64,000 nucleotides of DNA from Cellvibrionales bacterium (GCA_024639455.1 JAHEIH010000003.1:85276-149275); one strand, 5' to 3'. Numbered from the stretch's first letter, positions 2,493 through 57,130 are shown. The notes: a model not told the origin generated them from the sequence alone. Program-made: numbers and translations.

Positions 2493-3155
2493 TTAGGCGG
2501 GATGCAATCCTAGTAAGGGGCGCATAAGCCAACCAACCACGCCGGGTATGCGAATGGGAGATTCCAGCGCAGAAAAACATATGCACTCACCATTTTTGGC
2601 ACCCATGGGTTGGTGCGACTCTCCGGCACGGCGGACTAAAAAGTCACCGGGCTTGTAAATGCCATCTTCATCAGAGAAACTGCCAGACAATACCACGGTG
2701 TACTCTTTACCGCTGTGATTGTGGTTGTATGTTTTGCCGCCAGCACAAATGCGATGAAGAGCTACTTCAAATTTTTCTTGCCCTGTTACAAGTCTGGCAA
2801 CATCCAGTGAAGACGTTAGTTTTTTCCACTTCGGACCATTGGTTTTAGCGATTAATTTCTGCACAAGCTGTGGGAAACCAGAACCATCGTCTTGGTTAGT
2901 TGGCGCAAGCGGCGCGGGCTGTTCACCATCGATACGTGCAAATAGCTTGTCCAAAGCGTCATCGTTAACACTAATGCTATTCTGATCTGCGAATATTTCC
3001 GCACCAAGCTCATTCAGCTGGGACACCCTGGCACGACAACGCTCACAGAAGTGGAGGTGGACAGAAACACACATCGATGGAACGGATTCAAGGGTGCCCG
3101 CAGAAAATTCGAGCAACATTTCTTCTTTGGGGTGGTGACTAACTGGGGTATTCAT
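2493..3155 (-). CDS. chrR: ChrR-family anti-sigma factor (zinc anti-sigma domain plus C-terminal cupin)
   Basis: N-terminal HLHFCERC (H-x3-C-x2-C zinc motif). 220 aa with a cupin-like C-terminus. 4-nt overlap with the upstream ECF sigma gene. Confidence 0.85.
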   Translation of the reverse strand: MNTPVSHHPKEEMLLEFSAGTLESVPSMCVSVHLHFCERCRARVSQLNELGAEIFADQNSISVNDDALDKLFARIDGEQPAPLAPTNQDDGSGFPQLVQKLIAKTNGPKWKKLTSSLDVARLVTGQEKFEVALHRICAGGKTYNHNHSGKEYTVVLSGSFSDEDGIYKPGDFLVRRAGESHQPMGAKNGECICFSALESPIRIPGVVGWLMRPLLGLHPA

Positions 3156-3787
3156 CGTGTAACCATTACTTGTAATTTGTCGAGTGCACGGCGAACGCGC
3201 GACTTGACGGTACCGAGTGGAAGATTCATGTCTTCAGAGACTTCAGACTGGCTCTTGCCCTCGAGGTAAATCTTTCTTAGCACATCGCCTTGTTCAGGAG
3301 GGAGCTGTGACAAACTATCGTGGATCACATCTTTAATTCGTCGACGAATAAGTTGTGATACCGGGGTTTCCTCATCGACGGGATGCCAGTAGTCATCGGC
3401 ATCCAATGTTTGTGTCGCTTGACGGTTTATTCTGCGCAACATATCTATTTTTGTGTTGCGCGCCATTGTATAGATCCAAGTTGTTGCCGCCGATTTCGTT
3501 GAATCGAACGATTGTGCCTTGTTCCACACCTTAATCATCACTTCTTGCACAAGTTCTTCTGACAATTGTTGACCGTCGTTATCGGGGGTTTCAAATCGAG
3601 CGAAACCTTTGATAAGTGGGCCAAAATGACTAAAAATCTCAGCAAAAGCTTTGCGGTCACGTTGGGTGGCTATTCTTTCAAGCCGCTCGGTCCACTCGTC
3701 ATCGCGCTTTTTAGGGCTGGTATTGTTATGCACTTTTCTGGACTCCACTGATTTTTTATTATCAGTGTAGCGTAAAACTGTGCTCAT
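3152..3787 (-). CDS. ECF-type RNA polymerase sigma-70 factor (partner of ChrR)
   Basis: Region 2 (LVQEVMIKVWNKA) and region 4 HTH (LPPEQGDVLRKIYLEGKSQSEVSEDMNLPLGTVKSRVRRAL). Overlaps chrR by 4 nt. Confidence 0.9.
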   Translation of the reverse strand: MSTVLRYTDNKKSVESRKVHNNTSPKKRDDEWTERLERIATQRDRKAFAEIFSHFGPLIKGFARFETPDNDGQQLSEELVQEVMIKVWNKAQSFDSTKSAATTWIYTMARNTKIDMLRRINRQATQTLDADDYWHPVDEETPVSQLIRRRIKDVIHDSLSQLPPEQGDVLRKIYLEGKSQSEVSEDMNLPLGTVKSRVRRALDKLQVMVTR

Positions 3788-35311: not shown

Positions 35312-35745
35312 CGACAACTATTTCGAGCAACAGCAAAGTTACCCTGCAGTTTGAAATTCGCCTCGACAACGGCGACGTGGTGGATTCGACCTTCGAAAAA
35401 GCGCCCGCAACCTTTGTGATGGGCGATGGATCATTGTTTGCTGGGTTTGAGCGCAAGTTGATCGGCATGGCCGCAGGTCAGCGTGCGACTTACCAAGTGG
35501 CTCCCGAAGATGCCTTTGGCCAGCCCAACCCCCATAATGTGCAAACCTTCAAGCGTTCACAGTTTGATAAAGATATGGAGATTGTGCCCGGTATGATGTT
35601 CTCCTTTGCCGATGCGCAAAACACCGAGCTGCCTGGCGTGGTAAAAGAAGTGACCGAGACCTTTGTCGACGTTGATTTCAACCACCCACTGGCGGGCAAG
35701 ATCCTTAATTTTGAAGTGCTGATTCACGCGGTGGAGGAAGCCTAA
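35308..35745 (+). CDS. fkpB: FKBP-type peptidyl-prolyl cis-trans isomerase
   Basis: 145-aa FKBP/SlyD-like sequence in the conserved lspA-fkpB-ispH position, with 4-nt overlap. Confidence 0.85.
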
Positions 35746-36692
35746 TGCATGTTCAACTCGCCAACCCACGCGGCTTTTGCGCTGGCGTAGACCGCGCCAT
35801 TGATATTGTTAATCGTGCCTTAGATATCTTTGGCGCGCCGGTGTTCGTGCGCCATGAAGTCGTGCACAACAAATTCGTAGTAGGGCAGTTGCGTGATCGC
35901 GGTGCGGTGTTCGTCGACGAACTGCACGAAGTTCCCGACGACGTCATCGTGATTTTCAGCGCCCACGGCGTCTCCAAAGCCGTGCGCGACGAAGCCGACC
36001 GCCGTGGTTTGAAAGTGTTCGATGCCACCTGCCCGCTGGTGACAAAGGTGCACCTCGAAGTGGTGAAGTATTCGCAAGAGGGCATGGAAACCATCCTCAT
36101 CGGCCACCAAGGCCACCCCGAGGTGGAAGGCACCATGGGCCAGTACGACGACAGCAATGGCGGCGTGATTTACTTGGTAGAAGACGAACATCAGGTGGCT
36201 CAACTGCAGGTGAAAGACCCCAATAATCTGGCTTACGTTACACAGACCACGCTTTCCATGGACGATACGGCTAAGGTGATTGCCGCCTTGCGACATCGTT
36301 TCCCCAATATCGTCGGCCCTCGCAAAGACGACATCTGCTACGCCACCCAAAATCGCCAAGACGCCGTGAAGACCCTGTCCCAGCAGTGCGATATGGTGTT
36401 GGTAGTCGGCTCGCCCAATAGCTCCAATTCGAACCGCCTGCGTGAACTGGCTGAGCGCAATGGTTGCGATGCCTACTTAATCGACGGCCCCGCCGATATC
36501 GACCCCAAATGGCTCGAAGGTAAGCAAGCTATTGGTGTGACCGCCGGCGCCAGTGCGCCTGAAGTACTGGTAAGGCAGGTGATCGAAGGCCTACAAGCCA
36601 TGGGGGCTAACGCCCCCGTGGAATTAGACGGCGCACGAGAAAACATTACCTTTTCCCTCCCCAAAGAGCTCCGCCTCGTCCCCGTCGACTAA
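35745..36692 (+). CDS. ispH: 4-hydroxy-3-methylbut-2-enyl diphosphate reductase
   Basis: [19 protein letters not shown] (first cluster Cys). 315 aa. Conserved operon position. Confidence 0.95.
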
Positions 36693-36701
36693 TTCAATTT
36701 C

Positions 36702-36740
36702 GAGATATGTGACCTAGGTCGCATATCTCAATTTATTCTT
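36702..36740 (+). terminator. hairpin terminator after the ribF-ispH operon
   Basis: 28-nt near-perfect palindrome GAGATATGTGAC-ctag-GTCGCATATCTC (36702-36729; 12-bp stem with one G.U pair), followed by AATTTATTCTT. Confidence 0.6.
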
Positions 36741-36826
36741 GGCTATCCTAGATAAAGCTCGGGCAAAACTTGTCAAAGCGACTATAGTTAAGGCTATGGA
36801 AAAATATCTGTAGCAAGGATAGTTAA

Positions 36827-37402
36827 GTGGTATTACGCCCCGCCCAACATAAGGGTTTTACCCTCATCGAACTGATGGTGACCATCGCCATCGCGGCCAT
36901 CCTGTTGACCATTGGTGTGCCCTCGCTGACGAGCTTTTTTGATCGGCAGAAGGTGATAGCGGCGGCTGAAGATATTTACGCAAATATTGCTTTAGCCAAG
37001 AGCCTAGCTATTTCATCCAATCAGGATGTGTCCTTTAAACTTTTCAACTACGACGCCGCCACCAAAGGATATTTTGGTGTGACCGATAATACAATTACTG
37101 ACTATGCAAGTGAATGTCGTGACGGCGTGACACTCGCCGACCTCAAAGTAGGGGATATGGTTTACAAAGTGTCGTCAGATAACCACGAGGGCGTGACATA
37201 TAAAATTGGAGGTGAATCAGGTTTAAGGGCATGGTGTGTTCAGTTTGATAATGTAAGAGGAGCTGTTACAACATTTACAAATTCTGGTGCCAAATATTAT
37301 GTCGACATTACCTATGATGAATTAGATATGCGTGTAAATGTATCACAGTTAGGCCGAATAAGTATTTGTAGTAATGATGTGGGTGGGTACTTGGCATGCT
37401 AA
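36827..37402 (+). CDS. GspH/FimU-FimT-family type IV pilus minor pilin (first gene of the cassette, fimU-like by position)
   Basis: Prepilin motif KG|FTLIELMVTIAIAAILLTIGVPS. GTG start with AAGGA RBS. Confidence 0.8.
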   Translation: MVLRPAQHKGFTLIELMVTIAIAAILLTIGVPSLTSFFDRQKVIAAAEDIYANIALAKSLAISSNQDVSFKLFNYDAATKGYFGVTDNTITDYASECRDGVTLADLKVGDMVYKVSSDNHEGVTYKIGGESGLRAWCVQFDNVRGAVTTFTNSGAKYYVDITYDELDMRVNVSQLGRISICSNDVGGYLAC

Positions 37403-38169
37403 AAAAACAGCGAATGCGATCTCAAAAGGGCTTTACATTAGTCGAACTGATCATCTCAGTGGCGCTGGGTATTGCTGCTGTTTCGGCGATTATGTTTTTT
37501 TATATATCAACGTTGAGTAGCAGTTATACCACTTTAAAGAGCAGTAAACTAAATCAAGAGCTTTCTACAGCCATAGCTATAGTCGTGCAAGATATAAAAC
37601 GTGCTGGATTTGTGGGTGGGACCATTGATCCAAAGTTAAATCCATTTAATGAATTCGGAGAGACATCACTTCGTTTATTTGATTCTAATGCCTCAACTAA
37701 GCCAGTTGCTCTTGCTGATATAAATTCTGCTTCTTTCACTACTGCAAATTGGTTTAGCGACTGTGTTTTATTTAGTTATGATCTGGATAAAGACCAAATT
37801 CTTGATGCAGATGAGTACTTTGGTTATCGAATGACTAGTGATGGAGACTTTCAAATTCATCTTTATAACGGAGTGCCTCCAGTAAATAGTTGCGCCAATA
37901 ATGCCAATTGGCAAAGCCTGATTGATAAAGATGAAATCATAGTTACTAACTTTGTTGTTAGTTTGGAGGACTCAAATTGTATAAACGTTGAAGCTTCAAA
38001 ATCATCTGCTGCCTACAATTGTTACATCATCGAGCCATCTATTGGTGACACTACTGTTGAAGAATTAGTTGTAGAGATTACATTAGATGGAAAATTAGTC
38101 GGTGATGATGTTTCGCTATCTCTTAATCAAAGAGCAAAAATTCGAAATCCAATTGTGAGGATTAGGTGA
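37396..38169 (+). CDS. pilW: PilW-like (GspJ-like) type IV pilus minor pilin
   Basis: KG|FTLVELIISVALG prepilin motif. 257 aa. 7-nt overlap with the upstream gene. Confidence 0.7.
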   Translation: MLKKQRMRSQKGFTLVELIISVALGIAAVSAIMFFYISTLSSSYTTLKSSKLNQELSTAIAIVVQDIKRAGFVGGTIDPKLNPFNEFGETSLRLFDSNASTKPVALADINSASFTTANWFSDCVLFSYDLDKDQILDADEYFGYRMTSDGDFQIHLYNGVPPVNSCANNANWQSLIDKDEIIVTNFVVSLEDSNCINVEASKSSAAYNCYIIEPSIGDTTVEELVVEITLDGKLVGDDVSLSLNQRAKIRNPIVRIR

Positions 38170-39458
38170 TGAAAAGCTCTCAACATGGAGCGGCAACGTT
38201 AATATTTTCTATCGTTGTATTGCTACTCGTAACATTTGTGACATTGTCAACCTCAACCTCTATTATTTCAGAACTAAAAATCGGTAATAATGATTATCGA
38301 TCCAAGCAGGCTTTCGAGGCAGCAGAAGCCGGTATTGCTGAAATTTTTCGGTTATTTGCAGAAGGAAAGCGTCCAGCTGTAGCTGGCGGTATGTTTGGGA
38401 CAATATCTTCGCCTCTCAACTCAGATACCCTAACGTTTACAAATTCTCTTGGTCAAATTTTTACAGCAAACCTTTCTGTTGATGGTGATTTTAATTTAAC
38501 GTCTGTTGGTTTTTCTGATGATTTGAGTGCAACAAAAACAATTACCATACGCGCTGCACTTCCTACGGCGATTAACAATTTACCTGAAAACCCGCTTACT
38601 GCAAGGGGTGCTGTAAATATAGGTGGTGCAGCAAATATCTATAATTCCGAAGGCGCGAGCACAATCTGGGCCGGGGGCGATGTTGCCGCAGGTGTAGGCA
38701 GGACTTATATTGCAAACCCTTCAACATCCGGTCGAAGTGTTACCCATTCATCTCCAGCAGTGGTGCCTGTTCCAGATGCTAATGGAGTTGGAGGCGTATC
38801 TAATTGTTCTGGTCAAACATGCACATTACTTCCTTATCCTCAGTGTCTTGAATATTCATTAACATGTGAATTGACCAAGGCTTCTGACGGAGAAAATGGT
38901 GTAGATGTCATTTCAAATGACAGTGCCTTAGCAGAATTGTCAAAAGATGAGGTTTTTATTAACTACACAGGAGAACCGCCGTCTCAGTTTAGAAATCAAA
39001 CAGCTAACGTTATTAGTTCTTATTCGAATTTTAATGATTTTTACACGAATAATCCCGATGACTCCGTTCAAAGAATAATATGGTTTGATGGAGATTCCTC
39101 TTCCTCGGGTGGTCCTACATTTGGTTGTTCGATTGATATGTCGGGTAACGATGGTGGTACGCAATATACAGAAGCTTTAACACGGTGTGAGTTGGGTGGC
39201 GGAACATTAAATCCTGTAATGATTGTTGTTGATGGCGATTTAACAGTTGCGGGTAACCTTTACATCTTCGGCGCATTAATCGTTCTGGGTGATCTAAAAG
39301 GAAGCGGTTCTGTTGATGTTACTGGTGCACTAGTCGTTACAGGAAGTGCTGCAGAAAGTGGCTCAAAGGATATTAGATTTAGTTCCAGGGCACTTCAGTT
39401 GATCAACGAGAATGCGGTAACGCCATATGCAGCATCAGGTGGCTGGAGTGATTTTTAG
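38166..39458 (+). CDS. pilX: PilX-like (GspK-like) minor pilin, long form
   Basis: PilX_N-type N-terminus QHGAATLIFSIVVLLLVTFVTLS...YRSKQAFEAAEAGIAE. 430 aa. The start overlaps the pilW stop. Confidence 0.7.
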   Translation: MMKSSQHGAATLIFSIVVLLLVTFVTLSTSTSIISELKIGNNDYRSKQAFEAAEAGIAEIFRLFAEGKRPAVAGGMFGTISSPLNSDTLTFTNSLGQIFTANLSVDGDFNLTSVGFSDDLSATKTITIRAALPTAINNLPENPLTARGAVNIGGAANIYNSEGASTIWAGGDVAAGVGRTYIANPSTSGRSVTHSSPAVVPVPDANGVGGVSNCSGQTCTLLPYPQCLEYSLTCELTKASDGENGVDVISNDSALAELSKDEVFINYTGEPPSQFRNQTANVISSYSNFNDFYTNNPDDSVQRIIWFDGDSSSSGGPTFGCSIDMSGNDGGTQYTEALTRCELGGGTLNPVMIVVDGDLTVAGNLYIFGALIVLGDLKGSGSVDVTGALVVTGSAAESGSKDIRFSSRALQLINENAVTPYAASGGWSDF

Positions 39459-39467
39459 GAGTTCTTT

Positions 39468-42356
39468 ATGAAAATATCAAGATCCTCTGGCTTTGGGCTT
39501 ATTGAAGTTATTATTGCTGTGGTAATTGTCTCATTTGGGGTTTTAGCCGTTGGGAAATTGCAAACTTCACTAATCTCTAGTAGTGCTGACTCCAAAGCAA
39601 GAAGTGAGGCGTTGGTTATTGCGCAAGCTCGTATGGAGTTGATGCGTGATTTTGCTTTTCTGACTGATACAGCCTCTAATTTTGTCGATGCTGAATCTTT
39701 CGGTGTAGCTTTTCTGGATGAATTTTCTTCAGGTGGTACTTATCAGGCTTATGGTACAAATGCAGTTTTCATAGTTAAGGATATTACTAGTGCTAATGGA
39801 AATTCTGTTAATGCAGAAGTATTGGTTAGCTGGGTAGCAAGTGATGCTGAGTTACAGTCTGTGAGCGTTAGCTCGGAAATTACCTATACAGATCCTGCAG
39901 GTACCTCTTATGAAGAGAAAGATAAGATTGAACCTTTTGTAGATGCACCAACTGGGAGGGCATTTATTGGTAAAGGTATAGTTGATGATTATTTAACAGC
40001 CGAAGATTGTGGCGGTCCTTGTGGTGATAATGTAGATGGTACTAAAGTGCTTGCTGTAGCAAGCAGTGGCGAGGAAACGACATCAAACCTTTTACTTGCG
40101 GTTGGAGATGACGTGGTACTAACCCTTGAGGAAGCTTGTGAAAGAACGATTTCTACTGATGCTCAAACGAGTGAAGAAAGTACCTATTTTTGTACAGATT
40201 TTGTGACGGTCTCTGGTCGGGTATATATACATGAGGATTATGATGCAAATCTACCTAGCCAGCATTTTGTCCTAGCATCGGATGCCGCTTTTTGTGCGAG
40301 ATACTTCACAAATGGTGAAGGAAATGTTGTTACTTTTGAGTCAGATACAAGCGTAGAAGGTTACTCTGGTCAAAAAACAATTGAGTTTAATGATTTAAAA
40401 AACAACCCATCTTCAGACTTTAGGTTTTTCGAATATACCTGTTATCTTGGCGGCGGTTGGCATGGAAATATTGGTGTTCTTTTTGATGAAGCTGATAACA
40501 AGCAGTTGGTTTGTGTTGGGGATCCTTCAAGTTCAGAAAATCCAGTAAGTAATCAATCACGTCGTGCCTACAGAGGAATGTTGTGGCGTTACTCTGAGAG
40601 CGATGTTGATAAAGCGCCTATTTTGTATCGTGCGGATGACAATGATGTAAAAGAACTAGATTTAGATGCCATTGTTGGTACTGTTAGGTATCACTCATGG
40701 GGTATTGCAGATGCCGCAGTGTTTCCAGGGGACATAACTGCTGAAACAGTTTTGAATCAAAAGAAACATGACTTTTTTGTTGCGGCTACTGATATTTCAG
40801 GTGTTTCTGGTTGTGCAGATGTCGCCGCTTTAGAACCGTCGCTTTTAGATAATAATAACGACGAGTTTTTCTGTTTAAATGAAGCAATGGTTGGTGCGGT
40901 AGGTATAGCTATTGAAGGATCTGCAGGTGGCTATAATTCCAGCCTAGATAGTGTTAGATATGACGACTTGGTTGAAAATGAGCGCGGTAGCTTTTATAAC
41001 CGGTTTTATGGCGAGTGTCCTTATGACCCAACAACCCCACCAAATTTTTTATACGTACTAAAAGGAAAATTTGTAGTAACTGGAGGTAATATTTTAGGTG
41101 GATCTTCAGATTTCCTTAATGCTGTGCTTGATGTAACAACTAGTAAAGGGAACAATTGTCAATTAACTGATGAAAGTTTTGATTTATCTTCAAGCGGTGG
41201 ATTTGACCTGGATTCATCTACAACATCGGATTCAACTGATTACGTCGCTTACTTTAGATGCAATTTATATGACCCCGGAGAAGAGCAAGGTGTTAACCTC
41301 AATCCTCTTGGTTGGGATGGCACTGTTGATGTTGTCATTGATGAGGCATCATCAGAGAATTTCACTTGTGAAACTGATGAAATTTCTTTAAGTAATATAA
41401 CTGCAGATCTTGAGGATCAATTGCTCAAATGTTCCTTGGATGTGGATATTGTGGTTGCGGAAGATGATTCAGTTGCTGTCCTTGAAGGTGGAGAGCAAAA
41501 TTATGTTCTGGGTGCAACTAGCATTACCGCTTTTGAAATAGATGTTTTAGCAAATGACACTTATCCGGGTGATTCACCAGTAATAACAAACGTATCGCTA
41601 ATTTCTGAATCACCTGATCCGGCTTTCAGTGGAAACGTTTATGCTGGTGTTGTTGAGGGCGGAAGTGGATATAGAGTCTACTATTCTCCATCAGCTTCAT
41701 ACTTGGGGCTAACTCAAATTACTTACACTATGAAGGAGAGTGAACTAGCGTTATCTTCCTATTCGGCTACGGTCACGATTAACGTAACATCTTCTGACAA
41801 CCCTGTTTATGCTGTTGATGATAGTGGTTACTTTGTAGCATCGGGCGCAACTTATGTTGCTATCCCGATCGTTGAACTCCTCTCGAACGACTCAGTACTA
41901 GATGGTGTTGCTTCAGTGGAGATAGAAGGTGACATTTACGATTCATCTGATACTTACAATTTTGTTCCCGAAATAAATTTTGGTTTAGACGAGTTTAATT
42001 ATTTAGTCTCTGATTCTGATGATGATAATGATTCGGCAACGGTTTATGTTGAGGTTAGAAAGAAATTTGTATTAGAAGTCCCATTAAATATTTTATCTGG
42101 TCAACTTAAATCGGTAGCTTCAACAGCAGGTGGTGCTTCTTGTGGTGACTGGGATACTTCAGATAAATGTTATTCTCCAGATGTATCAGAGCCTTGGTCA
42201 GGGACTGTTACAATTACTGCAAAATCTGCTAACTCTAGATTATGTGTGAACGGTAATAAATACGTTTCATATGATATAACGTTTACTGATATCACTGATG
42301 ATGCAACTTCAAATGTTGACATTTCATTAGTGTCAAACAACAAAGCTTGTCCATAG
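39468..42356 (+). CDS. pilV: giant PilV-like (GspI-like) minor pilin fused to a ~800-aa Cys-rich, cadherin-like adhesin extension
   Basis: N-terminus SSG|FGLIEVIIAVVIVSFGVLAVGKLQ plus a ~140-aa PilV-like core, then an uninterrupted ORF to 962 aa. 18 Cys, all after residue ~180. Two cadherin-like modules. AGGAG RBS. Confidence 0.75.
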   Translation: MKISRSSGFGLIEVIIAVVIVSFGVLAVGKLQTSLISSSADSKARSEALVIAQARMELMRDFAFLTDTASNFVDAESFGVAFLDEFSSGGTYQAYGTNAVFIVKDITSANGNSVNAEVLVSWVASDAELQSVSVSSEITYTDPAGTSYEEKDKIEPFVDAPTGRAFIGKGIVDDYLTAEDCGGPCGDNVDGTKVLAVASSGEETTSNLLLAVGDDVVLTLEEACERTISTDAQTSEESTYFCTDFVTVSGRVYIHEDYDANLPSQHFVLASDAAFCARYFTNGEGNVVTFESDTSVEGYSGQKTIEFNDLKNNPSSDFRFFEYTCYLGGGWHGNIGVLFDEADNKQLVCVGDPSSSENPVSNQSRRAYRGMLWRYSESDVDKAPILYRADDNDVKELDLDAIVGTVRYHSWGIADAAVFPGDITAETVLNQKKHDFFVAATDISGVSGCADVAALEPSLLDNNNDEFFCLNEAMVGAVGIAIEGSAGGYNSSLDSVRYDDLVENERGSFYNRFYGECPYDPTTPPNFLYVLKGKFVVTGGNILGGSSDFLNAVLDVTTSKGNNCQLTDESFDLSSSGGFDLDSSTTSDSTDYVAYFRCNLYDPGEEQGVNLNPLGWDGTVDVVIDEASSENFTCETDEISLSNITADLEDQLLKCSLDVDIVVAEDDSVAVLEGGEQNYVLGATSITAFEIDVLANDTYPGDSPVITNVSLISESPDPAFSGNVYAGVVEGGSGYRVYYSPSASYLGLTQITYTMKESELALSSYSATVTINVTSSDNPVYAVDDSGYFVASGATYVAIPIVELLSNDSVLDGVASVEIEGDIYDSSDTYNFVPEINFGLDEFNYLVSDSDDDNDSATVYVEVRKKFVLEVPLNILSGQLKSVASTAGGASCGDWDTSDKCYSPDVSEPWSGTVTITAKSANSRLCVNGNKYVSYDITFTDITDDATSNVDISLVSNNKACP
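41445..42056 (+). repeat. two tandem cadherin-like/bacterial Ig-like modules inside the giant PilV-like CDS
   Basis: Module 1 (41445-41798): VAEDDS...IDVLANDTYPGD...LTQITYTM...SATVTINV. Module 2 (41799-42056): YAVDDS...VELLSNDSVLDG...LDEFNYLV...SATVYVEV. The same motif order occurs in both. Confidence 0.6.
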
Positions 42357-42368
42357 GCGTTAATTTTT

Positions 42369-42770
42369 ATGAGAAGACAAACTGGTATTACTTTGTTAGA
42401 GCTAATGATAGTTGTTGCCATCATTGGTATATTGGCTGGGATTGCCTACCCATCTTATCAAAGCTCAGTGTTAAAAAGCCGTCGTGTTGAAGCCCACACT
42501 GATTTGTTTGCGCTTCAACTAGCAATGGAAAAAGCCAGGGGAAATTGTGCGACATATGCCTCAGCTTTTGGTACGGGTGGTTGTGCTTCTTCACAGGTTA
42601 ATTACACCGCGAATTCAAGTTACTACACATTATCGATTTCTGGAGCTTCTGGCGGCGACTACAAGCTGACTGCAACAGCTACTGGTGCCCAGGCCAGTGA
42701 CACTGACTGTGCTACGATCACGCTAACTCGTGACGGCACTCAAGGTGGCACTACTGCGAACTGCTGGTAA
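42369..42770 (+). CDS. pilE: PilE-like type IV pilin
   Basis: TG|ITLLELMIVVAIIGILAGIAYPSYQ. 133 aa with C-terminal Cys pair (DCATITL...NCW). Confidence 0.8.
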   Translation: MRRQTGITLLELMIVVAIIGILAGIAYPSYQSSVLKSRRVEAHTDLFALQLAMEKARGNCATYASAFGTGGCASSQVNYTANSSYYTLSISGASGGDYKLTATATGAQASDTDCATITLTRDGTQGGTTANCW

Positions 42771-43337
42771 TCAACACACCACATTATCCCCATCGACGGC
42801 ATTGACTATGCCGTCGCCATCTTCATCCTTGGCATCTCTCGCTCGGCCCATGCGGCTAATAATCAACCTTGTGGCATAAATCACATCCGCATGTCCTGGG
42901 CAGTACGTTATATGACCAAACTCTTTCACCGTGCCGTTGGGGCGGTGTCTAATATAGTGCCTGCCCACACTCATATTGAACAATACCTGCGCTTCGGCAT
43001 CGTCTAGCTTGGCAAATTCAACCGTTTCGCCGGGGTCGGCCTTGCGGTTTAGGTTTTTATCTTTAAACACCATGATCGTTTTATGTGCGCGGCGATTGCA
43101 GCTGTAAAGGTCATCACTGAAGCAGGTGGTGATTTCGGCATTTTGGGCGATGGCGTAGGCTCTGGCGAAGCGAATGGTTTGGGTGATGCGTTCGGTATCG
43201 GCGTCGCTGCGGGCGCGTTTGAACATGTTTTGGAAGCTAGGCACACCAATGTTGAGCAAGATCGCGAGTATGGCTACGGTGATGACCATTTCTATCAGGG
43301 TAAAGCCGCTCGCTTCGTGTGTCGTGCGCATCGTCAC
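42771..43337 (-). CDS. GspH/FimT-family minor pilin (fimT-like by position next to pilR)
   Basis: SG|FTLIEMVITVAILAILLNIGVPSF. 188 aa. Its stop codon abuts the pilE stop with no intergenic base. Confidence 0.8.
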   Translation of the reverse strand: MTMRTTHEASGFTLIEMVITVAILAILLNIGVPSFQNMFKRARSDADTERITQTIRFARAYAIAQNAEITTCFSDDLYSCNRRAHKTIMVFKDKNLNRKADPGETVEFAKLDDAEAQVLFNMSVGRHYIRHRPNGTVKEFGHITYCPGHADVIYATRLIISRMGRARDAKDEDGDGIVNAVDGDNVVC

Positions 43338-43406: not shown

Positions 43407-44795
43407 TTATTCGATACCGAGTTTTTCGAGGCGGTAGCGCAGTGAGCGGAAGGTGAGGCCAAGTTTTTTGGCCGCGGCGGTGCGGTTCCAGCGGCAGGCG
43501 TCGAGAGTATCGGTGATGAGCTTTTTCTCAACTTCTCCAAGGTAGGCTTCAAGGTCGATATAGGCTTCGCCATCTTCGTTAATGTGTTGTTGCGGTGTCG
43601 GAAACGGGGCCTTTGCCTTTGCATTAGTGGCTGGTGTCTCCAACCTAGCGGCTTTTTGTAATTGGCTGTAGGCGTTGTTATTGAGCTGCAAGTCGTCTGT
43701 GTTTATCGTTTCGCCATCGCACAGGGCCACGGCGCGCTCAAGGATATTTTCTAGCTCGCGAATGTTACCTGGGAAGTCGTACTCGTGCAGGGCATGCAGG
43801 GCTTCTTGGCTGAGCAGGGTGTCGCTGTGACCCATTTTGGCGAGAATGTGTTTGGCCAGCAAGGGTATGTCGGCTTTGCGTTGGCGTAGCGCGGGGACGT
43901 TAATTTCGATGACATTCAAACGGAAAAACAAGTCGGCGCGGAATTGACCGTCGGCGACAAGCTGAGTCAAATCCTTGTGGGTTGCGCTCAACAGCCTTAC
44001 ATCCACATCAATTTCGCTGTGGCTTCCCACTGGCCTTACCTTTTTCTCTTGAATGGCGCGCAGCAATTTAACCTGCATATTAAGCGGCAGGTCGGCGATC
44101 TCATCGAGAAAAAGGGTGCCACCATTGGCCGCCTCGAACAATCCAGGTTTGTCGCTATTGGCGCCGGTAAAGGCCCCTTTTTTGTGGCCGAAAAATTCGC
44201 TTTCCATGAGTTCGCTGGGAATGGCGCCGCAGTTAATCGGTACAAACGGGCCGTCTTTGCGTGCGCCCATGTTATGTACCAGTCGCGCCACTAATTCTTT
44301 GCCACTGCCGGATTCGCCATGGATAAAAACGGGAGCTTGGTTGCGCGCCACTTTGGCAATGGTGTCGCGCAAGGCCTTGATGTTGGCTGCTTCGCCCAGC
44401 AGTTGTTGGCTGGCATCTAGGGGAGGAGTAACGGCGGATTTTAGGGCGCTTTCGACCAGTTTTTTAAGCCGAGGCATTTCCACTGGTTTATTCAGAAAAT
44501 CAAACGCGCCAAGTTTGAGAGCGTCGATGGCGGTTTCGACATCGCCATGGGCAGTGATCATGGCAATGGGTAGGCCTGGGCAGTGTTGCTGGCCATATTT
44601 GATCACGTCTATACCATCACCGTCCGGCAATCGCATGTCGGTAAGGCAAAGGTCATAGCGGTTGTTGGCCAATTTGTTGACGGCCGCGCGAACGCAGTTA
44701 GCGGTGTCTACGGTCAGCCCCATGCGAGACATGGTCATGCCCAGTAGTTCCAGCAGGTCGGGTTCGTCGTCGATAATCAATACGTGTTGAGACAT
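43407..44795 (-). CDS. pilR: sigma-54-dependent response regulator PilR
   Basis: REC (LIIDDEPD...LTDMRLPDG), AAA+ (GESGSGKE, GAFTGA) and a C-terminal Fis-type HTH. Located in the pil locus. Confidence 0.9.
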   Translation of the reverse strand: MSQHVLIIDDEPDLLELLGMTMSRMGLTVDTANCVRAAVNKLANNRYDLCLTDMRLPDGDGIDVIKYGQQHCPGLPIAMITAHGDVETAIDALKLGAFDFLNKPVEMPRLKKLVESALKSAVTPPLDASQQLLGEAANIKALRDTIAKVARNQAPVFIHGESGSGKELVARLVHNMGARKDGPFVPINCGAIPSELMESEFFGHKKGAFTGANSDKPGLFEAANGGTLFLDEIADLPLNMQVKLLRAIQEKKVRPVGSHSEIDVDVRLLSATHKDLTQLVADGQFRADLFFRLNVIEINVPALRQRKADIPLLAKHILAKMGHSDTLLSQEALHALHEYDFPGNIRELENILERAVALCDGETINTDDLQLNNNAYSQLQKAARLETPATNAKAKAPFPTPQQHINEDGEAYIDLEAYLGEVEKKLITDTLDACRWNRTAAAKKLGLTFRSLRYRLEKLGIE

Positions 44796-44901: not shown

Positions 44902-46281
44902 ATGTCTACTCCGTTTACTTCGCTGCCGCTACCCGCGGAACAACTCGCCGTTATTGCATCGCTAGGTTTTGATGTGATGACGCCCATCCAGCAGCAAAGC
45001 CTACCTGAAAGTCTGCAAGGTAAAGATGTCTTGGCCCAGGCGCCTACCGGTAGCGGTAAAACGGTGGCTTTTAGTTTGCCTTTGATTCAGAACCTGAAGC
45101 CACGCTCTTTCGCCGTGCAAGCCTTGGTGCTTTGTCCAACGCGTGAACTGGCGGGGCAGGTGGCGGATGAAATTCGTCGTTTGGCAAAATACCCTGGCAA
45201 TATCAAGGTGCTTACACTGTGCGGTGGGCAACCCATAGGTCCGCAGATTGGCTCGTTAGCCCATGGTGCTCATGTCATTGTAGGCACGCCTGGCCGTGTG
45301 TCGGACCATTTGCGGAAGAAAACCTTGGATCTTGCGAACGTTAATACGCTGGTCTTGGACGAAGCGGATCGGATGCTCGATATGGGGTTTAAGGATGATA
45401 TTCTCGCTATCGTCGCGCATACGCCCAAAGATCGCCAGTCACTGTTGTTCTCGGCGACTTACCCAAGTGATATTAAAGCGATGTCGGCGGAGGTGTTAAA
45501 TTCACCGCTACAGGTCAAGGTAAGTGCCGATGACGAAGCGCATACCGATATTGAGCAGCGCGTTTATCAAAAAGCTAGTCTTGATGATTTGCAGGCGCTA
45601 CTTGGGGTATTGAGCCACTACCAACCCGAAGCTGGCATTATCTTTTGTAATACCCGTGAGCAATGTAACGACCTGGGCGTCGACCTCAAGGCGCATGGCG
45701 TGAACGCCGGCGTACTGCACGGCGATATGGAGCAGCGCCAGCGCGACCAAATTTTGATTCGCTTTGCCAATGGTTCACTGCGCTTTTTGATCGCCACGGA
45801 CGTGGCGGCCCGCGGTTTAGATATTCCCCAAGTCGACTTGGTAATCAATGATGGCCTGCCACGAGACTTAGATGTTTTTACCCATCGCAGTGGTCGCACA
45901 GGCCGAGCGGGGCGCAAAGGGCTGGTGGTGTCGGTGATAGCCCCCAAGGAAACCCATAAACTAGAGCGCATCAATGATCAGTTTGGTATACATTTACACG
46001 CGGAACCTGCACCTGCTGTGGATATTTATCGCTTGTCGGAACTCAAGCCCACCATGCGCACGCTGGAAATCGATCGCGGGCGCAAGCACAAGATGCGCCC
46101 TGGCGATATTGTTGGCGCGTTGACGGCCACCAAAGAGATTGCTGGTGGTGATATTGGGCAGATAAACCTTCAGGATATGGCGAGCTACGTCGCGCTACCC
46201 AAGCGACTGGCGGATAAAGGGGTGGAGATACTGCGTTCTCGCCCAATTAAGGGGCGCGGTGTCAGGGCGCGTAAAATCTAA
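44902..46281 (+). CDS. dbpA: ATP-dependent RNA helicase DbpA
   Basis: AQAPTGSGKT, DEAD, SAT and HRSGRTGRAG motifs, plus the DbpA-type C-terminal RNA-binding domain (MRPGDIVGALT). Confidence 0.9.
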   Translation: MSTPFTSLPLPAEQLAVIASLGFDVMTPIQQQSLPESLQGKDVLAQAPTGSGKTVAFSLPLIQNLKPRSFAVQALVLCPTRELAGQVADEIRRLAKYPGNIKVLTLCGGQPIGPQIGSLAHGAHVIVGTPGRVSDHLRKKTLDLANVNTLVLDEADRMLDMGFKDDILAIVAHTPKDRQSLLFSATYPSDIKAMSAEVLNSPLQVKVSADDEAHTDIEQRVYQKASLDDLQALLGVLSHYQPEAGIIFCNTREQCNDLGVDLKAHGVNAGVLHGDMEQRQRDQILIRFANGSLRFLIATDVAARGLDIPQVDLVINDGLPRDLDVFTHRSGRTGRAGRKGLVVSVIAPKETHKLERINDQFGIHLHAEPAPAVDIYRLSELKPTMRTLEIDRGRKHKMRPGDIVGALTATKEIAGGDIGQINLQDMASYVALPKRLADKGVEILRSRPIKGRGVRARKI

Positions 46282-47843
46282 TTCTTGCCAAACAGTATGC
46301 TGAAGCTCTTGCGACGACGACCACCGTGTCGGTAGTCGAGCGCCGCTTGATTAGAAAGACATAGCTCACGGCAAATATAAAGACCTAGTCCGGTACCTTT
46401 GTGCTCGGTGGTGAAAAAGGGTTCAAACAGGTGTGGCACTTGGTCATCGGGTACCGGTTCACCGTAGTCTACCACTGCGAGTGCATAGCGTTGCAGGCGC
46501 TCTACATGTTGCAGGTGAAGCAACACGCCGTGGCCATCTTCCTGTGTCACCGTATAGCGCAGAGCATTGTTGCAAAGGTTGTCTAGTACTTGTTGTAACT
46601 GACTGGGATCAAAGCTGATCACCGCCTCTTGCGCCTCTATTTGACATTTAATCACACCTTGTTGGAGTTGGTTAAATTGTTCACAGAAGCTGTGCAGCCA
46701 TTCGGCTAACTGGATGGTTTGCATTGGCGTGGTTTGGCGCCGCGATAAACTCTGAATGTTTTCGATAATCTGATTCATGCGCCGACTTTGGTGTGCGATA
46801 ATCTCTAGTAATCGCTTGTCTTCATCACCATCGGCGGTTTCGTCGAGTAGTTCGGCTGCGTGTTTAATAGCCGCCAAGGGATTGCGTATTTCATGGGCGA
46901 TACTGGCGGTTAGGCGGCCGAGCGACGCTAGCTTTAACTGCTGAGCTTGTTGGCTAGCTTTGCGCGCGTTTTCTAGAAACACCATGGTATATTGCGCATC
47001 GTCACTGTTAACGTTTTTGAATTGCAAATGAAGTTCATGGTGATCGTGTTGGGTGGTAACCGTAGGTAAGGGCAGTTCAGGATTAGATTTCCACTGCAGG
47101 TATTGCTGCTGAAACATCTGCGGTAGCCGCTTGGGTTGGCCTTTACTCATATCGATATTTAGGGCGCGTTCAGCGCCTCTGTTTAAGGCCCGGACCTCAT
47201 CACCCTCTAATAAAATCACCCCAGTATTTAGTTGTTGAAGGATCAGTTGGTTGAGCTTTTCGGCGGCCGCTTTCTCGCGACTGCTTTTCGCCACCTGTTG
47301 TTCGGCAAGTCGTAGGTTTAGAGCAAAGCGATCCACCACCACGGCGGTAAGCATCAAAAACGCACTGAAAAGGCCGCTGCTGTAGAGATCGATGCGCTCT
47401 TCGCTAGGATAGCCCTGCGACACTAGGCCATCGGTCAGCAATCCTAAAACAAACAGTGACGCGACAACCAAGGCCAAGGGGTTGCCCAGTACCATTGTCG
47501 CAGACGCCACGGTGATCACACATAACAAACTCAACGCGGTAACACCGCTCACTGCGCTGGAATGCAGTGCAATGACCAAAAAGATGGTGTCAAACAAGAA
47601 ACCAGCAAACAGGGCTTGTCGCAGCCACTCGTTGGCGACGCGTTGCCAGTAGCGAATGGCAATAAGGGCGAGTACTACGTAAGTGCTAGAGGCTTGGATA
47701 AAGAGGCTGGGGGCACGTTGCCCCAGCATGCCCTCGCTGCCATTTAGCCAAAAGATTAATGCGAGGGAGACAGCAACAAGTAAACGATAAACACCATAGA
47801 TGTTTAGAAGAGTGGTGGTTGTGGCTCTAGTCTTGTTGATCAC
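46278..47843 (-). CDS. pilS: sensor histidine kinase PilS
   Basis: Multi-TM N-terminus. H-box GRLTASIAHEIRNPLAAIKHAAELL. HATPase GTGLGLYI. The maximal ORF reaches 47945, but GTG 47843 avoids a 119-nt same-strand overlap and gives a ~521-aa product, close to the length I recall for PilS (~530 aa). Confidence 0.85.
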   Translation of the reverse strand: MINKTRATTTTLLNIYGVYRLLVAVSLALIFWLNGSEGMLGQRAPSLFIQASSTYVVLALIAIRYWQRVANEWLRQALFAGFLFDTIFLVIALHSSAVSGVTALSLLCVITVASATMVLGNPLALVVASLFVLGLLTDGLVSQGYPSEERIDLYSSGLFSAFLMLTAVVVDRFALNLRLAEQQVAKSSREKAAAEKLNQLILQQLNTGVILLEGDEVRALNRGAERALNIDMSKGQPKRLPQMFQQQYLQWKSNPELPLPTVTTQHDHHELHLQFKNVNSDDAQYTMVFLENARKASQQAQQLKLASLGRLTASIAHEIRNPLAAIKHAAELLDETADGDEDKRLLEIIAHQSRRMNQIIENIQSLSRRQTTPMQTIQLAEWLHSFCEQFNQLQQGVIKCQIEAQEAVISFDPSQLQQVLDNLCNNALRYTVTQEDGHGVLLHLQHVERLQRYALAVVDYGEPVPDDQVPHLFEPFFTTEHKGTGLGLYICRELCLSNQAALDYRHGGRRRKSFSILFGKN

Positions 47844-48075
47844 TATCGTTTTTCTGCTCGAATTCCTTTTGATGAGCGCTGCAGCAGAACCATTGCGCCC
47901 CCGAGCTAATGGCTTTGTCCTTGGGGATGTAAGTGCCGCATTCACTACACTTAATCATAGTGCCGCTTTGCTTTTCTTGCCTGTCGTAGGCGCTCACGCG
48001 GGCTTTGTAGGCTTGATAGAACTTGTAGACTAACCAAATGGCTAGCCCAAAAACGATAACGCGAATTAGCCCCAT
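47827..48075 (-). CDS. PP0621-family small membrane zinc-ribbon protein
   Basis: 82 aa. N-terminal TM helix LIRVIVFGLAIWLVY. C-terminal CSECGTYIP...WFCCSAH. Immediately upstream of pilS. Confidence 0.65.
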   Translation of the reverse strand: MGLIRVIVFGLAIWLVYKFYQAYKARVSAYDRQEKQSGTMIKCSECGTYIPKDKAISSGAQWFCCSAHQKEFEQKNDSDQQD

Positions 48076-55096: not shown

Positions 55097-57130
55097 ATGA
55101 ATCAAAAAATCCTTTCTTCTGCTATTTCGACGGTGATATGTCTTATCGCGAACAATGCGTTGGCGGCAGATGATTTCTATGAAGACATTCCCTTAGTGAC
55201 CAGCGTGTCTAATTTTCCTCAAAAAATTAGCGAAGCGCCCGCTGCGGTAACCATCGTTACCCGCGATATGATCGCTGCGGCAGGTGTGGTCGACATCCAC
55301 GATATTTTTCATTTGGTGCCAGGGTTTGATAGCTACCGACAAAGCGGCTCCTTTGGTGCGGTGAGTTATGGTACCTATCCCAATGCCTACCCGAATAACC
55401 TAGAAATTAAGTTAGATGGTTTGTCTATTTACGAGGTATTTCTCAATACTACCAATTGGAATAGCTTAGGCATTGACGTTGAGGATATCGAGTTCATAGA
55501 AGTCGTGCGTGGAGCAAACGCTTCCGTCGATGGCGCTAACTCTTTCACCGGCGCCATCAATATCGTCACGGCGGCGCCATTAAAACAAACGCACCAAATG
55601 GTCCGAGCGCGACTTGGCAGCCGTGGTGAGCGGGATGTTAGCTTGCAATTGGGTTCCTACGGTGCCGGTACTGCCTATCAACTTACCTTAAAGAAGCGCA
55701 AACATGACGGATTCGCTGCTTATGAAGGTCAGCCCGTTGAGGATGCGCTAGATACCCATTCAATTCGCTTTAGGAGCAGTGTTACTCCAACGGCCCTAGA
55801 TACTCTCGATTTTCAAGCGGGTTTTGCTGATACCGATCTGGGTATGACCGGTGGCGGTAAAGAGGATACCGCCGATGAAACCGAACCCTACACCATGACG
55901 TCGTCTTATCTTGCGGCGACTTGGAAGCGTGAAAAAGGTGATAGCCAATACCAAGTGCGCGCTTATCGGACCAGTAACTCGGTGGAATACTATCAGTATA
56001 TAGGACCATTCACACAAGTGGTGGGGTTGCCGCCGCAGGTATTTTACCCCGATTTTCCCTATGCCGATTTTGATGTTGAATTGGATACTCGTGATCAATC
56101 CTCGCGCCGAATGGATGTCGAGTTTCGTCACAATCTCCGCATTGGCCACGACACTCGCTTTGGCTGGGGTGTCGGTCACCGCAATGACAGTGCGCGAAGT
56201 CGCTTGTTCTTCACCACGGATGACGCCATTAAAGAATCTACCAATCGAGCATTCGCAAACAGTGAAGTAAAATTTGGCGCGGTGACAACTAACTTAGGCG
56301 CTTCGTGGGAAGAAACAACCCAGGGTGATTCCGCGCTAAGTTTACGAGGCTCGATCAACGTTAAAGTGGCAGACAACACTACCCTGCGTTTTGCCCGAAA
56401 TAACGTTGACCGAGGGCCTTCGCTAATGGCGGCTAATGAGTACCGTACGCTCAGCTATGATGGATATGTGTTTGACCTTGATCGACTGTCTCACCCTAAC
56501 TTAGGAAAAGAGACCCTTCGCGTTACCGAAATTGGGGCTTACAGTGTGTTTTTTGACGGTGCCATGACGTTGGACGCCAAACTATATCGCGAAAAAGGTC
56601 GCGATTTGATCGAGGTTTATACCGTACGTCGCACACCACTCGATTTCGATCAGCGCATCGGCTACCGAGCTAATACGACTTTTGTCGATGTTGATGGCGT
56701 GGAGCTAGCGTTGAATTACAACGGCGATAAATGGCGATTATGGACGAATGCTACCTATCGAGACATCAGCGGCCAGGCCTTACGTGACACCGATATTGTT
56801 GATGGTCAGGAAATCACCGCCGTTGTCACCGATATGTACAACGCAGCCCCGGGGTTTATGGGATCAATGTTAATTGAGCGAGACATGGGTGACAGTACCA
56901 AGCTGTCTTTCAACTACCGCTTTAGGGACGATGTTGAATACCGGATTGGCGGCATACTTCCAGCTGCCTCCCGTTTAGACGCGACTGTTAGGAAGCAATG
57001 GTCGATGGGTGACAAAAATGTCCGTCTGGCGTTGTTAGTACACAACGTTTTTGATAGCACGGTACTAGATTACCAAGCCTTCAATGCTTTTGATCGCCGG
57101 GTGTATCTTCGCGCGGAATTAGATTTCTAA
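55097..57130 (+). CDS. TonB-dependent outer-membrane receptor
   Basis: Signal peptide ending ALA|AD. Plug-domain pattern (ISEAPAAVTIVTRDMI...). C-terminal beta-barrel ending in ...YLRAELDF (terminal Phe). Confidence 0.85.
   Translation: MNQKILSSAISTVICLIANNALAADDFYEDIPLVTSVSNFPQKISEAPAAVTIVTRDMIAAAGVVDIHDIFHLVPGFDSYRQSGSFGAVSYGTYPNAYPNNLEIKLDGLSIYEVFLNTTNWNSLGIDVEDIEFIEVVRGANASVDGANSFTGAINIVTAAPLKQTHQMVRARLGSRGERDVSLQLGSYGAGTAYQLTLKKRKHDGFAAYEGQPVEDALDTHSIRFRSSVTPTALDTLDFQAGFADTDLGMTGGGKEDTADETEPYTMTSSYLAATWKREKGDSQYQVRAYRTSNSVEYYQYIGPFTQVVGLPPQVFYPDFPYADFDVELDTRDQSSRRMDVEFRHNLRIGHDTRFGWGVGHRNDSARSRLFFTTDDAIKESTNRAFANSEVKFGAVTTNLGASWEETTQGDSALSLRGSINVKVADNTTLRFARNNVDRGPSLMAANEYRTLSYDGYVFDLDRLSHPNLGKETLRVTEIGAYSVFFDGAMTLDAKLYREKGRDLIEVYTVRRTPLDFDQRIGYRANTTFVDVDGVELALNYNGDKWRLWTNATYRDISGQALRDTDIVDGQEITAVVTDMYNAAPGFMGSMLIERDMGDSTKLSFNYRFRDDVEYRIGGILPAASRLDATVRKQWSMGDKNVRLALLVHNVFDSTVLDYQAFNAFDRRVYLRAELDF

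Follow-up and report, generated by a model that had tools for sequence, protein, structure and literature searches.

The 64,000-nucleotide (nt) stretch of DNA considered in this article, hereafter the window, belongs to a Cellvibrionales bacterium (GCA_024639455.1 JAHEIH010000003.1:85276-149275) and carries, at positions 36827–42770, a cassette of five genes for type IV pilin-like proteins that is set between ispH and a convergent fimT-pilR pair. The cassette is much poorer in G+C than the DNA around it, and an original prediction made from the sequence of the window proposed that it had been replaced or acquired horizontally. This article describes the genes and composition of the locus, its counterparts in related organisms, and the evidence that diverged alleles of the entire module have been exchanged among them by homologous recombination.

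To the left of the cassette lies the plus-strand group ileS-lspA-fkpB-ispH, a conserved flank whose last gene, ispH (lytB, 35745–36692; PF02401 LYTB), encodes a protein with 93–96% amino acid (aa) identity to those of clade relatives and has a G+C content at third codon positions (GC3) of 0.67. The 134-nt intergenic region that follows on the same strand (36693–36826) is conserved beyond the synonymous sites of the genes flanking it, with 93–98% nucleotide identity to the related contig L088 (contigs and loci compared here are cited by such numbers) against ~80% in ispH. It contains a terminator-like hairpin (36702–36729) whose 12-bp stem, preserved in loci farther removed although its bases differ there, is followed by a T-rich tail, and the region probably combines the ispH terminator with the promoter and 5′ leader of the cassette. 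Apart from this hairpin, pattern scans for sigma-70 promoters and terminators returned matches at or under shuffle expectation. Between ispH and pilin 1, the sigma-70 scan picked out nothing promoter-like, no sigma-54 −24/−12 arrangement is evident by eye, and no sigma-54, PilR, or AlgR site could be assigned.

The five plus-strand genes encode, in order, pilins of the H, J, K, I, and PilE types, an identification already made in the original prediction with which the Pfam, NCBIfam, and BLASTP matches agree. Minor pilin 1 (36827–37402, 191 aa) is GspH/FimU/PpdA-like, with an N_methyl match, a GspH match just under the cutoff (E 5.9e-4), and the processing motif HKG-FTLIE (G−1/F+1/E+5). Minor pilin 2 (37396–38169, 257 aa) is of the PpdB/PilW (GspJ) type; it matches PF27121 PpdB and, below cutoff, NCBIfam PRK10557 (E 1e-13), and its best BLASTP matches are PilW and PpdB. 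Minor pilin 3 (38166–39458, 430 aa) stands in the GspK position, matches PF14341 PilX_N (E 1.7e-9), lacks the glutamate at +5 (QHG-AATLI), as is typical of K-type pilins, and is 34–43% identical between alleles. The fourth gene encodes a giant pilin of 962 aa that comprises a pilin module (residues 1–145, 39468–39902) with a TIGR02523 PilV match below cutoff (E 3e-10) and canonical PilV as best BLASTP match, a cysteine-rich, beta-rich core (residues 157–665, 39936–41462), and a variable C-terminal beta-sandwich extension (41526–42356; PF17963 Big_9, NF012211). The last gene specifies a PilE-like pilin of 133 aa (42369–42770; ComP_DUS and N_methyl matches, BLASTP to PilE). Genes 1, 2, 4, and 5 and fimT have N_methyl matches, and their processing motifs (QKG-FTLVE, SSG-FGLIE, and QTG-ITLLE besides HKG-FTLIE in the cassette, and ASG-FTLIE in FimT) mark them as type IV pilins with class III signal peptides. 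The core minor-pilin quartet GspH/I/J/K (FimU/PilV/PilW/PilX types) is therefore present together, the globular parts of genes 1 and 4 being too diverged for firm typing.

The conserved right flank begins with fimT (42771–43337, minus strand, 188 aa), a GspH-type gene (PF12019 GspH E 7e-10, with a full-length BLASTP match to FimU-type proteins) that is 88–92% identical to those of relatives and has a GC3 of 0.62. It stands, as had been foreseen, beside a minus-strand pilR (43407–44795), which encodes a sigma-54 response regulator identified from the Pfam domains of an identical gene in L003 and 80–86% identical to those of relatives. The N-terminal-helix codons of pilin 1 and fimT form a 68-nt inverted repeat that is 72% complementary (arms 36854–36921 and 43240–43307), and the remaining genes of the window are housekeeping genes. 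No integrase or transposase domain occurs in the five cassette proteins, whose matches are to pilin families only; there are no tRNA genes in the 64-kb window, no direct repeats flank the cassette, and the inverted repeat is the only repeat that brackets it. The integrase or transposase, tRNA genes, and attachment-site repeats that characterize mobile genomic islands are thus missing as far as these searches reach. PilY1 has no Pfam match (PF05567) at the locus and no tblastn match anywhere in the window, and PADLOC gave no defence-system match.

Within the 64 kb, the cassette is the sole sustained stretch with less than 46% G+C. Its G+C content is 40.6%, against 51.4% in the remainder of the window (z = −6.0 relative to all other 5.9-kb intervals), and a two-change-point maximum-likelihood fit (log-likelihood gain 119) places the boundaries at 36690 (support 36680–36970) and 42640 (support 42435–42665). 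The deficit lies mainly at third codon, or synonymous, positions, with G+C at second positions unreduced; GC3 in the five genes is 0.43, 0.27, 0.28, 0.26, and 0.38 in order, compared with 0.45–0.67 in the other 44 open reading frames. Both edges of the dip fall within pilin genes, since GC3 in pilin 1 is 0.65–0.80 over the first ~40 codons and 0.15–0.30 thereafter, and in pilE it rises from ~0.33 to ~0.45–0.50 past ~42609. A locus-specific break with its edges inside pilin genes is what the original prediction had described, and the sliding G+C and GC3 profiles bear it out. The nine hand counts on single 60-nt lines from which it had been drawn proved exact to rounding on recount, both in the cassette (37201, 38%; 37801, 37%; 39781, 35%; 41521, 40%; 42421, 42%) and in the flanks (36001, 58%; 42661, 55%; 42771, 50%), with the first line of pilin 1 (36841) at 55%. 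Low G+C as a general trait of surface-protein genes was considered and rejected, as the only other clear outer-membrane gene in the window, encoding a TonB-dependent receptor (55097–57130), has a GC3 of 0.49, in the normal range. Two mild G+C dips (0.46–0.49) at 2493–3787 and 9480–11231, which are far weaker than that of the cassette, correspond to an extracytoplasmic function (ECF) sigma factor/ChrR-type anti-sigma pair and an MHYT-GGDEF signalling gene.

The exact proteins of the window were found only in a few metagenome assemblies. Its IleS is 83–97% identical to metagenomic sequences and ~70–73% identical to those of Cellvibrionaceae metagenome-assembled genomes (MAGs), Agaribacterium, Teredinibacter, and Microbulbifer, levels that place the host in an uncultured Cellvibrionales-like gammaproteobacterial clade. 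A PilR scan of GTDB species representatives, which also supplied the loci for the survey of orientation and G+C described below, found none closer than 71% (the nearest on a 5.8-kb contig, others at ~55%), and a scan of JGI metagenomes with pilin 1 found a single 1.6-kb locus only. Contigs of relatives with matching synteny were instead retrieved by looking up giant-PilV homologues and IspH cluster members as exact proteins. The window copy of the cassette is referred to as allele A, that of L087 as allele A′, and that of L095 as allele C, while allele F is found in a more distant host.

Replacement of the cassette can be followed at base level in L087 and L095. The IleS and IspH proteins of these two contigs are 100% identical and their FimT and PilR proteins 99% identical, but the proteins of cassette genes 1–5 share only 41, 38, 40, 31, and 83% identity, respectively, and the two giant pilins measure 963 and 769 aa. 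Synonymous divergence (dS) is 0.002 in ileS and 0 in lspA and fkpB, and near the swapped block it is 0.15 in ispH, 0.24 in fimT, 0.12 in pilR, and 0.07 in dbpA, the pattern that an incoming recombination tract with the cassette at its centre leaves behind. The two nucleotide sequences are 100% identical across the end of ispH, the intergenic region (36693–36826), and ~120 nt at the start of pilin 1. Over a few tens of bases downstream of the stretch that encodes the N-terminal helix of pilin 1 (~36950), identity falls to ~40%, and it does not return to 97–100% until the final third of pilE (~42607), from where it continues into fimT. These junctions coincide with the composition changes in the window. 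Congruent descent of one shared cassette, which would have told against the claimed replacement, is therefore not what this pair displays.

In a second pair, L099 and L102, IleS and IspH are identical and divergence begins after 189 nt of pilin 1 (~36980). When the nucleotide alignments of both near-identical pairs are mapped to window coordinates, the left junctions fall at 36940–36985, just past the codons for ...SFFDRQ(KVIAAAEDIY); the first ~41–51 codons of pilin 1 belong with the conserved flank and the rest is allele-specific. Pilin 1 of the window is accordingly 92–93% identical to its counterparts in L087 and L088 and 38–42% identical to those in L095, L099, L102, and L094. The right junctions lie within pilE, at ~42607 between alleles A′ and C and at ~42750 between the window and L088. 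In the latter comparison, dS is 1.5–3 in housekeeping genes, pilin 1 is 92% identical in aa with a dS of 0.75, and fimT has a dS of 0.78, while identity is 32–45% between ~37540, where the N-terminal helix of pilin 2 has just ended, and the end of pilE. PilE is itself incongruent with the flanks, the window protein being 75–82% identical to those of L095, L102, and L094 but 59% identical to that of L088. Between the window and L087 (8399–11290), the giant pilin gene is a mosaic in which dS is 1–2 at residues 176–275, 626–725, and 776–850 and 0.2–0.5 elsewhere; nonsynonymous divergence (dN) also jumps in these blocks, which indicate segmental exchange within one allele class.

Assemblies frequently break at this locus. 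Among 12 contigs retrieved via IspH, six end no more than ~300 nt past ispH (L002, L097, L098, L101, L103, and L104), one ends inside pilin 1 (L100), and two end inside genes 2 and 3. The broken contigs ending near ispH or in pilin 1 are up to 84 kb long, and such ends fit assembly-graph breaks caused by cassette alleles that co-exist in the sampled populations. Near-identical backgrounds, diverged alleles in one slot, sharp junctions, and raised divergence in the adjacent flanks, the features by which allelic cassettes are recognized, thus occur together. The horizontal replacement or exchange claimed in the original prediction is supported by these sister lineages, not by the window's own history.

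A neighbour-joining tree of the giant-pilin core places all alleles of the clade in one group with 95% bootstrap support and at least five deep lineages, and the core sequences of Microbulbifer and Colwelliaceae follow taxonomy. Allele C is nearest to allele F of the more distant host (IleS 83–84%) and not to allele A′ of the near-twin L087. All alleles of the clade are AT-rich relative to their own flanks, with GC3 values of 0.24–0.28 versus 0.51–0.69, 0.35–0.39 versus 0.46–0.57, and 0.28–0.33 versus ~0.42. The monophyly of these AT-rich alleles places the exchange among clade members, drawing on an old allele pool, with no sign of a donor from another order. The AT-richness that had been read as a sign of replacement or horizontal acquisition is real, but it is common to every allele of the clade and marks the pool, not a newly arrived foreign segment in this genome. 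As the two allele A copies, those of the window and L087, both have a GC3 of 0.25–0.28 despite a dS of ~0.5–0.6, the composition of the cassette appears to be stationary and not ameliorating. Low G+C is moreover a general phenomenon of the minor-pilin region, which lies below its flanks in 22 of the 25 gammaproteobacterial species in which pilR is linked to ispH (mean −4.1 points, extreme −10.7); the window cassette, at −11.5 points by the same measure, stands at the extreme end.

The first ~60 residues of the giant pilin match PilV, and in an alignment of 96 homologues the core stands out as conserved, with numerous cysteines that never vary and with the sequence motifs YxCYLGGGWHGNIG, RRxYRGM, and CPYDPTDPP. 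In a full-length AlphaFold2 (AF2) model, an alpha1 helix (residues 11–60) and a four-strand sheet (91–139) are followed by a low-confidence linker (148–156), a beta-rich core (160–660), and, past another linker, beta-sandwich domains of lower confidence (687–865). Foldseek matches of the full-length model to cadherin ectodomain arrays were generic only (TM 0.1–0.24) and were rejected, and for this reason the 509-residue core (157–665) was modelled alone, with a predicted local distance difference test score (pLDDT) of 89 and a predicted template modelling score (pTM) of 0.84. Foldseek found no significant match for this core in the PDB (best E 3.9e-3, TM 0.12), its weak matches being to the stalks of Gram-positive and chaperone-usher pilus adhesins. 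Pfam contains no family for the core, and a profile search of PDB sequences recovered pilin N-termini only (E ~0.08) and no sequence relative of the core. The core family comprises 157 clusters among 1.84 billion representatives, and the core almost always starts 150–200 residues into the protein, i.e., past the pilin module. Giant pilins of clade relatives range from 762 to 963 aa, and the C-terminal extension (Big_9/tandem-95/cadherin-like) is present in some alleles (908–963 aa) and missing from others (660–770 aa). Proteins that join a pilin module, via a short linker, to non-pilin modules are defined as modular pilins and have been proposed, in parallel to PilY1, as pilus-tip proteins or adhesins (PMC8179133); the giant pilin has this arrangement.

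The locus had been described as inverted relative to Pseudomonas. The PAO1-type layout used for that comparison is seen in several Pseudomonas loci (L019, L035, L066, L080, and L085), and the orientation of the window cassette is indeed opposite to it. However, the cassette runs in the direction of ispH, with fimT left by pilR, in 19 of 24 gammaproteobacterial species, among them most Marinobacter, the Cellvibrionaceae, Saccharospirillum, and several Pseudomonas, and the PAO1-type orientation is found in the other five; because this is the majority layout, the inversion is no peculiarity of the present genome. The orientation of the cassette has clearly flipped repeatedly between taxa, and the 68-nt inverted repeat of pilin 1 and fimT is only a candidate for the substrate of such flips. 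The order H-J-K-I in place of H-I-J-K, to which attention had also been drawn, is real but corresponds, by annotation, to that of ppdA-ppdB-ygdB-ppdC in E. coli K-12; it is the native order of a ppd-type set and not that of a scrambled Pseudomonas operon, and the succession H-I-J-K and then pilY1 that defines fimU-pilVWXY1Y2E is not found in the cassette. As arguments for replacement, orientation and gene order therefore have no force.

The ppd-order module belongs to a different class from fimU-pilVWX-pilY1-pilE. Both classes stand in tandem after ispH in L092 (5925–20959) and in Colwellia (L107, 5325–16563), where a ppd-order set with a giant PilV is followed by a canonical (fimU-)pilV-pilW-pilX-pilY1-pilE set, each with its own PilE. 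In Microbulbifer yueqingensis (FNFH01000003; L106, 5334–10457), the same five-gene module occupies an unrelated chromosomal site. There it lies between a nitroreductase gene and a resistance-nodulation-division (RND) efflux operon, with a GC3 20–25 points under its neighbours (0.53–0.62 versus 0.79–0.86). With its own site in Microbulbifer and a place in tandem with the canonical set elsewhere, the five-gene module behaves as a unit.

These observations are best accounted for, with a probability that we put at about 80%, if the cassette is a self-contained five-gene type IVa minor-pilin module in the ispH/fimT-pilR slot, with at least five diverged AT-rich alleles that are swapped by homologous recombination, and with a function at the pilus tip or as an adhesin. 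The alignments show an allelic exchange whose crossovers lie in the flanks and in alpha1-helix codons and that leaves mosaic first and last genes. Module alleles pass between strains and sister species by homologous recombination, and the crossover sites are the only stretches that remain similar between alleles, namely the flanking housekeeping and regulatory genes and the alpha1-helix codons of gene 1, gene 2, and pilE; crossovers in these codons explain why the breaks in composition and identity fall inside pilin genes. As to function, priming of pilus assembly and capping of the fibre would fall to the four core minor pilins, and the giant PilV would carry to the tip a disulfide-rich stalk of beta-sandwiches that ends in variable cadherin- or Ig-like domains, where it may act as an adhesin or receptor-binding element and so take the part of PilY1 in Pseudomonas-type sets. 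An exposed tip would be subject to frequency-dependent selection by phage, grazers, or substrate specificity, by which old alleles would be kept. The very low GC3 may arise from weak codon selection and AT-biased mutation in a locus of low expression that is frequently swept, or alternatively from active selection for AT-richness, and in either case would not reflect a recent foreign origin.

Several points weigh against this interpretation. The genome of the window itself shows no replacement event, and its closest relative, L087 (IleS 97%), has the same allele with roughly congruent divergence (dS 0.52–0.57 in the cassette and ~0.8 in the flanks). All comparators are metagenome contigs, among which membership of the same species depends on a few linked genes. 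The stationary GC3 speaks against a straightforward un-ameliorated import, but it is compatible with mutation bias as well as with selection. The tip location, the adhesin function, and the substitution for PilY1 are read from the architecture of the giant PilV alone, the model of its C-terminal 300 residues is of low confidence, and a pilY1 gene could sit elsewhere in the genome. A more far-reaching proposal, which we consider possible but somewhat doubtful, is that the giant PilV constitutes an undescribed class of type IVa tip adhesin, in which a core pilin of the GspI/PilV type carries a fused, disulfide-rich module of ~500 residues without a fold in the PDB, that it replaces PilY1 in a distinct five-gene module of marine Cellvibrionales and Alteromonadales, and that allelic diversity and stationary AT-richness are actively maintained, for example by phage-driven frequency-dependent selection and silencer-type regulation.

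The alternative that survives best leaves the genetics unchanged and differs in function only. On this reading, which seems unlikely although it deserves serious attention, the module serves a DNA-uptake (competence) pilus, as the counterpart of comNOPQ or ppdAB-ygdB-ppdC, and not an adhesion or twitching tip complex. In E. coli, ppdA-ppdB-ygdB-ppdC is the Sxy/CRP-S competence operon, homologous to comNOPQ of Haemophilus influenzae (PMC12616744), and its gene order is identical to that of the cassette. The adjacent FimT has a C-terminal GRAR that fits GRxR, the motif reported for DNA binding by Legionella FimT (PMC8897410), and PilE matches the ComP_DUS family, although the latter is a general family of PilE-type fold. 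Against membership of the ppd equivalogs, the scores with NCBIfam PpdA (PRK10506) and PpdB (PRK10557) are only 39.7 and 50.7, with cutoffs of 158 and 120, and the matches lie within the N-terminal ~75 residues; the giant beta-sandwich and cadherin-like module points instead to binding of surfaces or polymers. Roles in DNA uptake and in adhesion would in any case be mutually compatible.

Returning to the exchange of alleles within the clade, a recent import from a distant AT-rich donor, e.g., from Colwelliaceae or other Alteromonadales, that has not yet ameliorated would also yield a cassette with a GC3 of 0.26–0.28 in a host at ~0.6. The module of Colwellia has a GC3 of 0.23–0.31, which is at host level and without deficit in that 38% G+C genome, and the Microbulbifer and L092 copies look partly ameliorated. 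Such an import is nevertheless improbable, given that the clade alleles form a monophyletic group apart from Colwelliaceae and Microbulbifer, that the best matches outside the clade are only ~30–46% identical, that every relative has an AT-rich cassette in the same slot, and that both allele A copies hold their GC3 across the divergence separating them. The lack in the window of tRNA genes and of any bracketing repeat other than that of the N-helix codons likewise speaks against it, as does the restriction of the matches of the five cassette proteins to pilin families.

The homologous exchange favoured here must also be set against a history without any transfer, in which vertical inheritance would have been accompanied by very fast diversifying evolution and a local AT mutation bias. 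Relatives are alike in the architecture and position of the locus, all alleles are AT-rich, and the ratio dN/dS between alleles A and A′ is low (0.04–0.13), each of which such a history could accommodate. It is very hard to reconcile, however, with cassette proteins that are 31–41% identical and giant pilins that differ in length between contigs with an ileS dS of 0.002, with knife-edged identity steps and a dS raised in the adjacent ispH, fimT, and pilR, or with the grouping of allele C with allele F, and we regard it as highly improbable. An assembly or binning artefact, by which an AT-rich fragment of another organism was joined to the contig, might be suspected because the window probably stems from a MAG and contigs often break at the locus, but it can be dismissed, since both junctions recur at 99–100% identity in independent assemblies from separate runs (L001 covering ispH to gene 3, L003 and L004 both covering gene 1 to pilR), which excludes a chimera, and the same architecture is found in JGI, ENA, and Logan contigs of relatives.

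Exchangeable modules of this kind are familiar from Pseudomonas aeruginosa, in which divergent minor-pilin sets go with particular pilin groups (Giltner et al., 2011, cited in PMC11841053). The fimU-pilVWXY1Y2E operon has the same neighbourhood (pilS-pilR-fimT and ispH), its products are expected to have the same priming and tip roles, and, in the account given by that source, its sets are divergent and interchangeable, have a G+C content below their flanks, and are suspected of horizontal exchange. On that account, the evolutionary behaviour of the present cassette is already known and was to be expected. The two differ in that the Pseudomonas order is H-I-J-K-Y1-Y2-E and that of the cassette H-J-K-I-E, without pilY1 and pilY2 at the locus, in the enlargement of PilV to 962 aa, and in the opposite orientation with respect to PAO1. 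With the E. coli ppdA-ppdB-ygdB-ppdC and H. influenzae comNOPQ sets, the cassette shares the order of the four core minor-pilin types, and the N-terminal regions of genes 1 and 2 match the PpdA and PpdB models, with PF27121 matching gene 2. The cassette proteins are, however, two to nine times larger (PpdC has 107 aa against 962, and YgdB 135 aa against 430), a PilE gene is attached, and the site is ispH/pilR and not thyA/recC.

Modular pilins such as PilB and PilC of Streptococcus sanguinis, CofB of enterotoxigenic E. coli (ETEC), and ComZ of Thermus resemble the giant PilV in joining a pilin module through a short linker to bulky beta-rich modules and in being expected to bind ligands at the pilus tip (PMC8179133). 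The giant PilV differs from them in that its 509-residue core has neither a Pfam signature nor a solved-fold relative, and in that this core is carried by a GspI/PilV-type core minor pilin of a diderm type IVa pilus and is hypervariable and allelic. PilY1/PilC is likewise a large candidate tip adhesin whose gene lies in a minor-pilin cluster and whose ligand-facing domains vary. Unlike the large protein of the cassette, which is itself a pilin and has no propeller or PF05567 match, PilY1 is no pilin and has a C-terminal beta-propeller. Sets of the PilY1 type and of the giant-PilV type coexist as the separate tandem sets of L092 and Colwellia. Surface-antigen loci, such as O-antigen and capsule loci and pilin islands, are replaced through recombination in conserved flanks, and share with the cassette its AT-rich diverged alleles in a fixed slot, raised divergence of the adjacent flanks, and polymorphism shared across species. 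In the cassette, by contrast, crossovers fall in intragenic alpha1-helix codons and give rise to mosaic first and last genes.

What is new here is the clean intragenic junctions, the presence of a second, ppd-order module class in the ispH/pilR slot, and the uncharacterised module of the giant PilV. The swaps followed at base level, with alpha1-helix codons as crossover sites, provide an explanation for composition breaks inside genes, and the ispH/fimT-pilR slot is seen to hold either or both module classes, the so-called Pseudomonas layout being the minority orientation. The core family is small and uncharacterised, and combines a confident predicted structure and a pilin anchor with the absence of a solved relative, which makes the giant PilV family a candidate for the means by which PilY1-less type IVa pili display an adhesin. 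The natural exchangeable alleles offer tests of surface, polymer, or phage specificity in marine polysaccharide degraders.

At the right edge of the locus, the stop codon of pilE (ending at 42770) abuts that of fimT (starting at 42771), with zero intergenic bases and no terminator between the convergent genes, so that transcription reading on past the cassette would be antisense to fimT. In the C-terminal part of FimT (residues 164–188), the GRAR motif is followed by an acidic tail, DAKDEDGDGIVNAVDGDNVVC, which we take to resemble a thrombospondin-type-3 or EF-hand-like calcium-binding loop. Beyond pilR lie dbpA (44902–46281, plus strand), encoding a DbpA-type DEAD-box helicase, and pilS (46278–47945, minus strand), the 3′ ends of which overlap by 4 nt. 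The separation of pilS from pilR by dbpA is likewise found in L086, L088, and L095, the two regulatory genes are adjacent in L090 and L091, and in L093 and L094 neither stands beside fimT, where genes for phosphoenolpyruvate (PEP)-utilising and biotin-carboxylase proteins are found instead.

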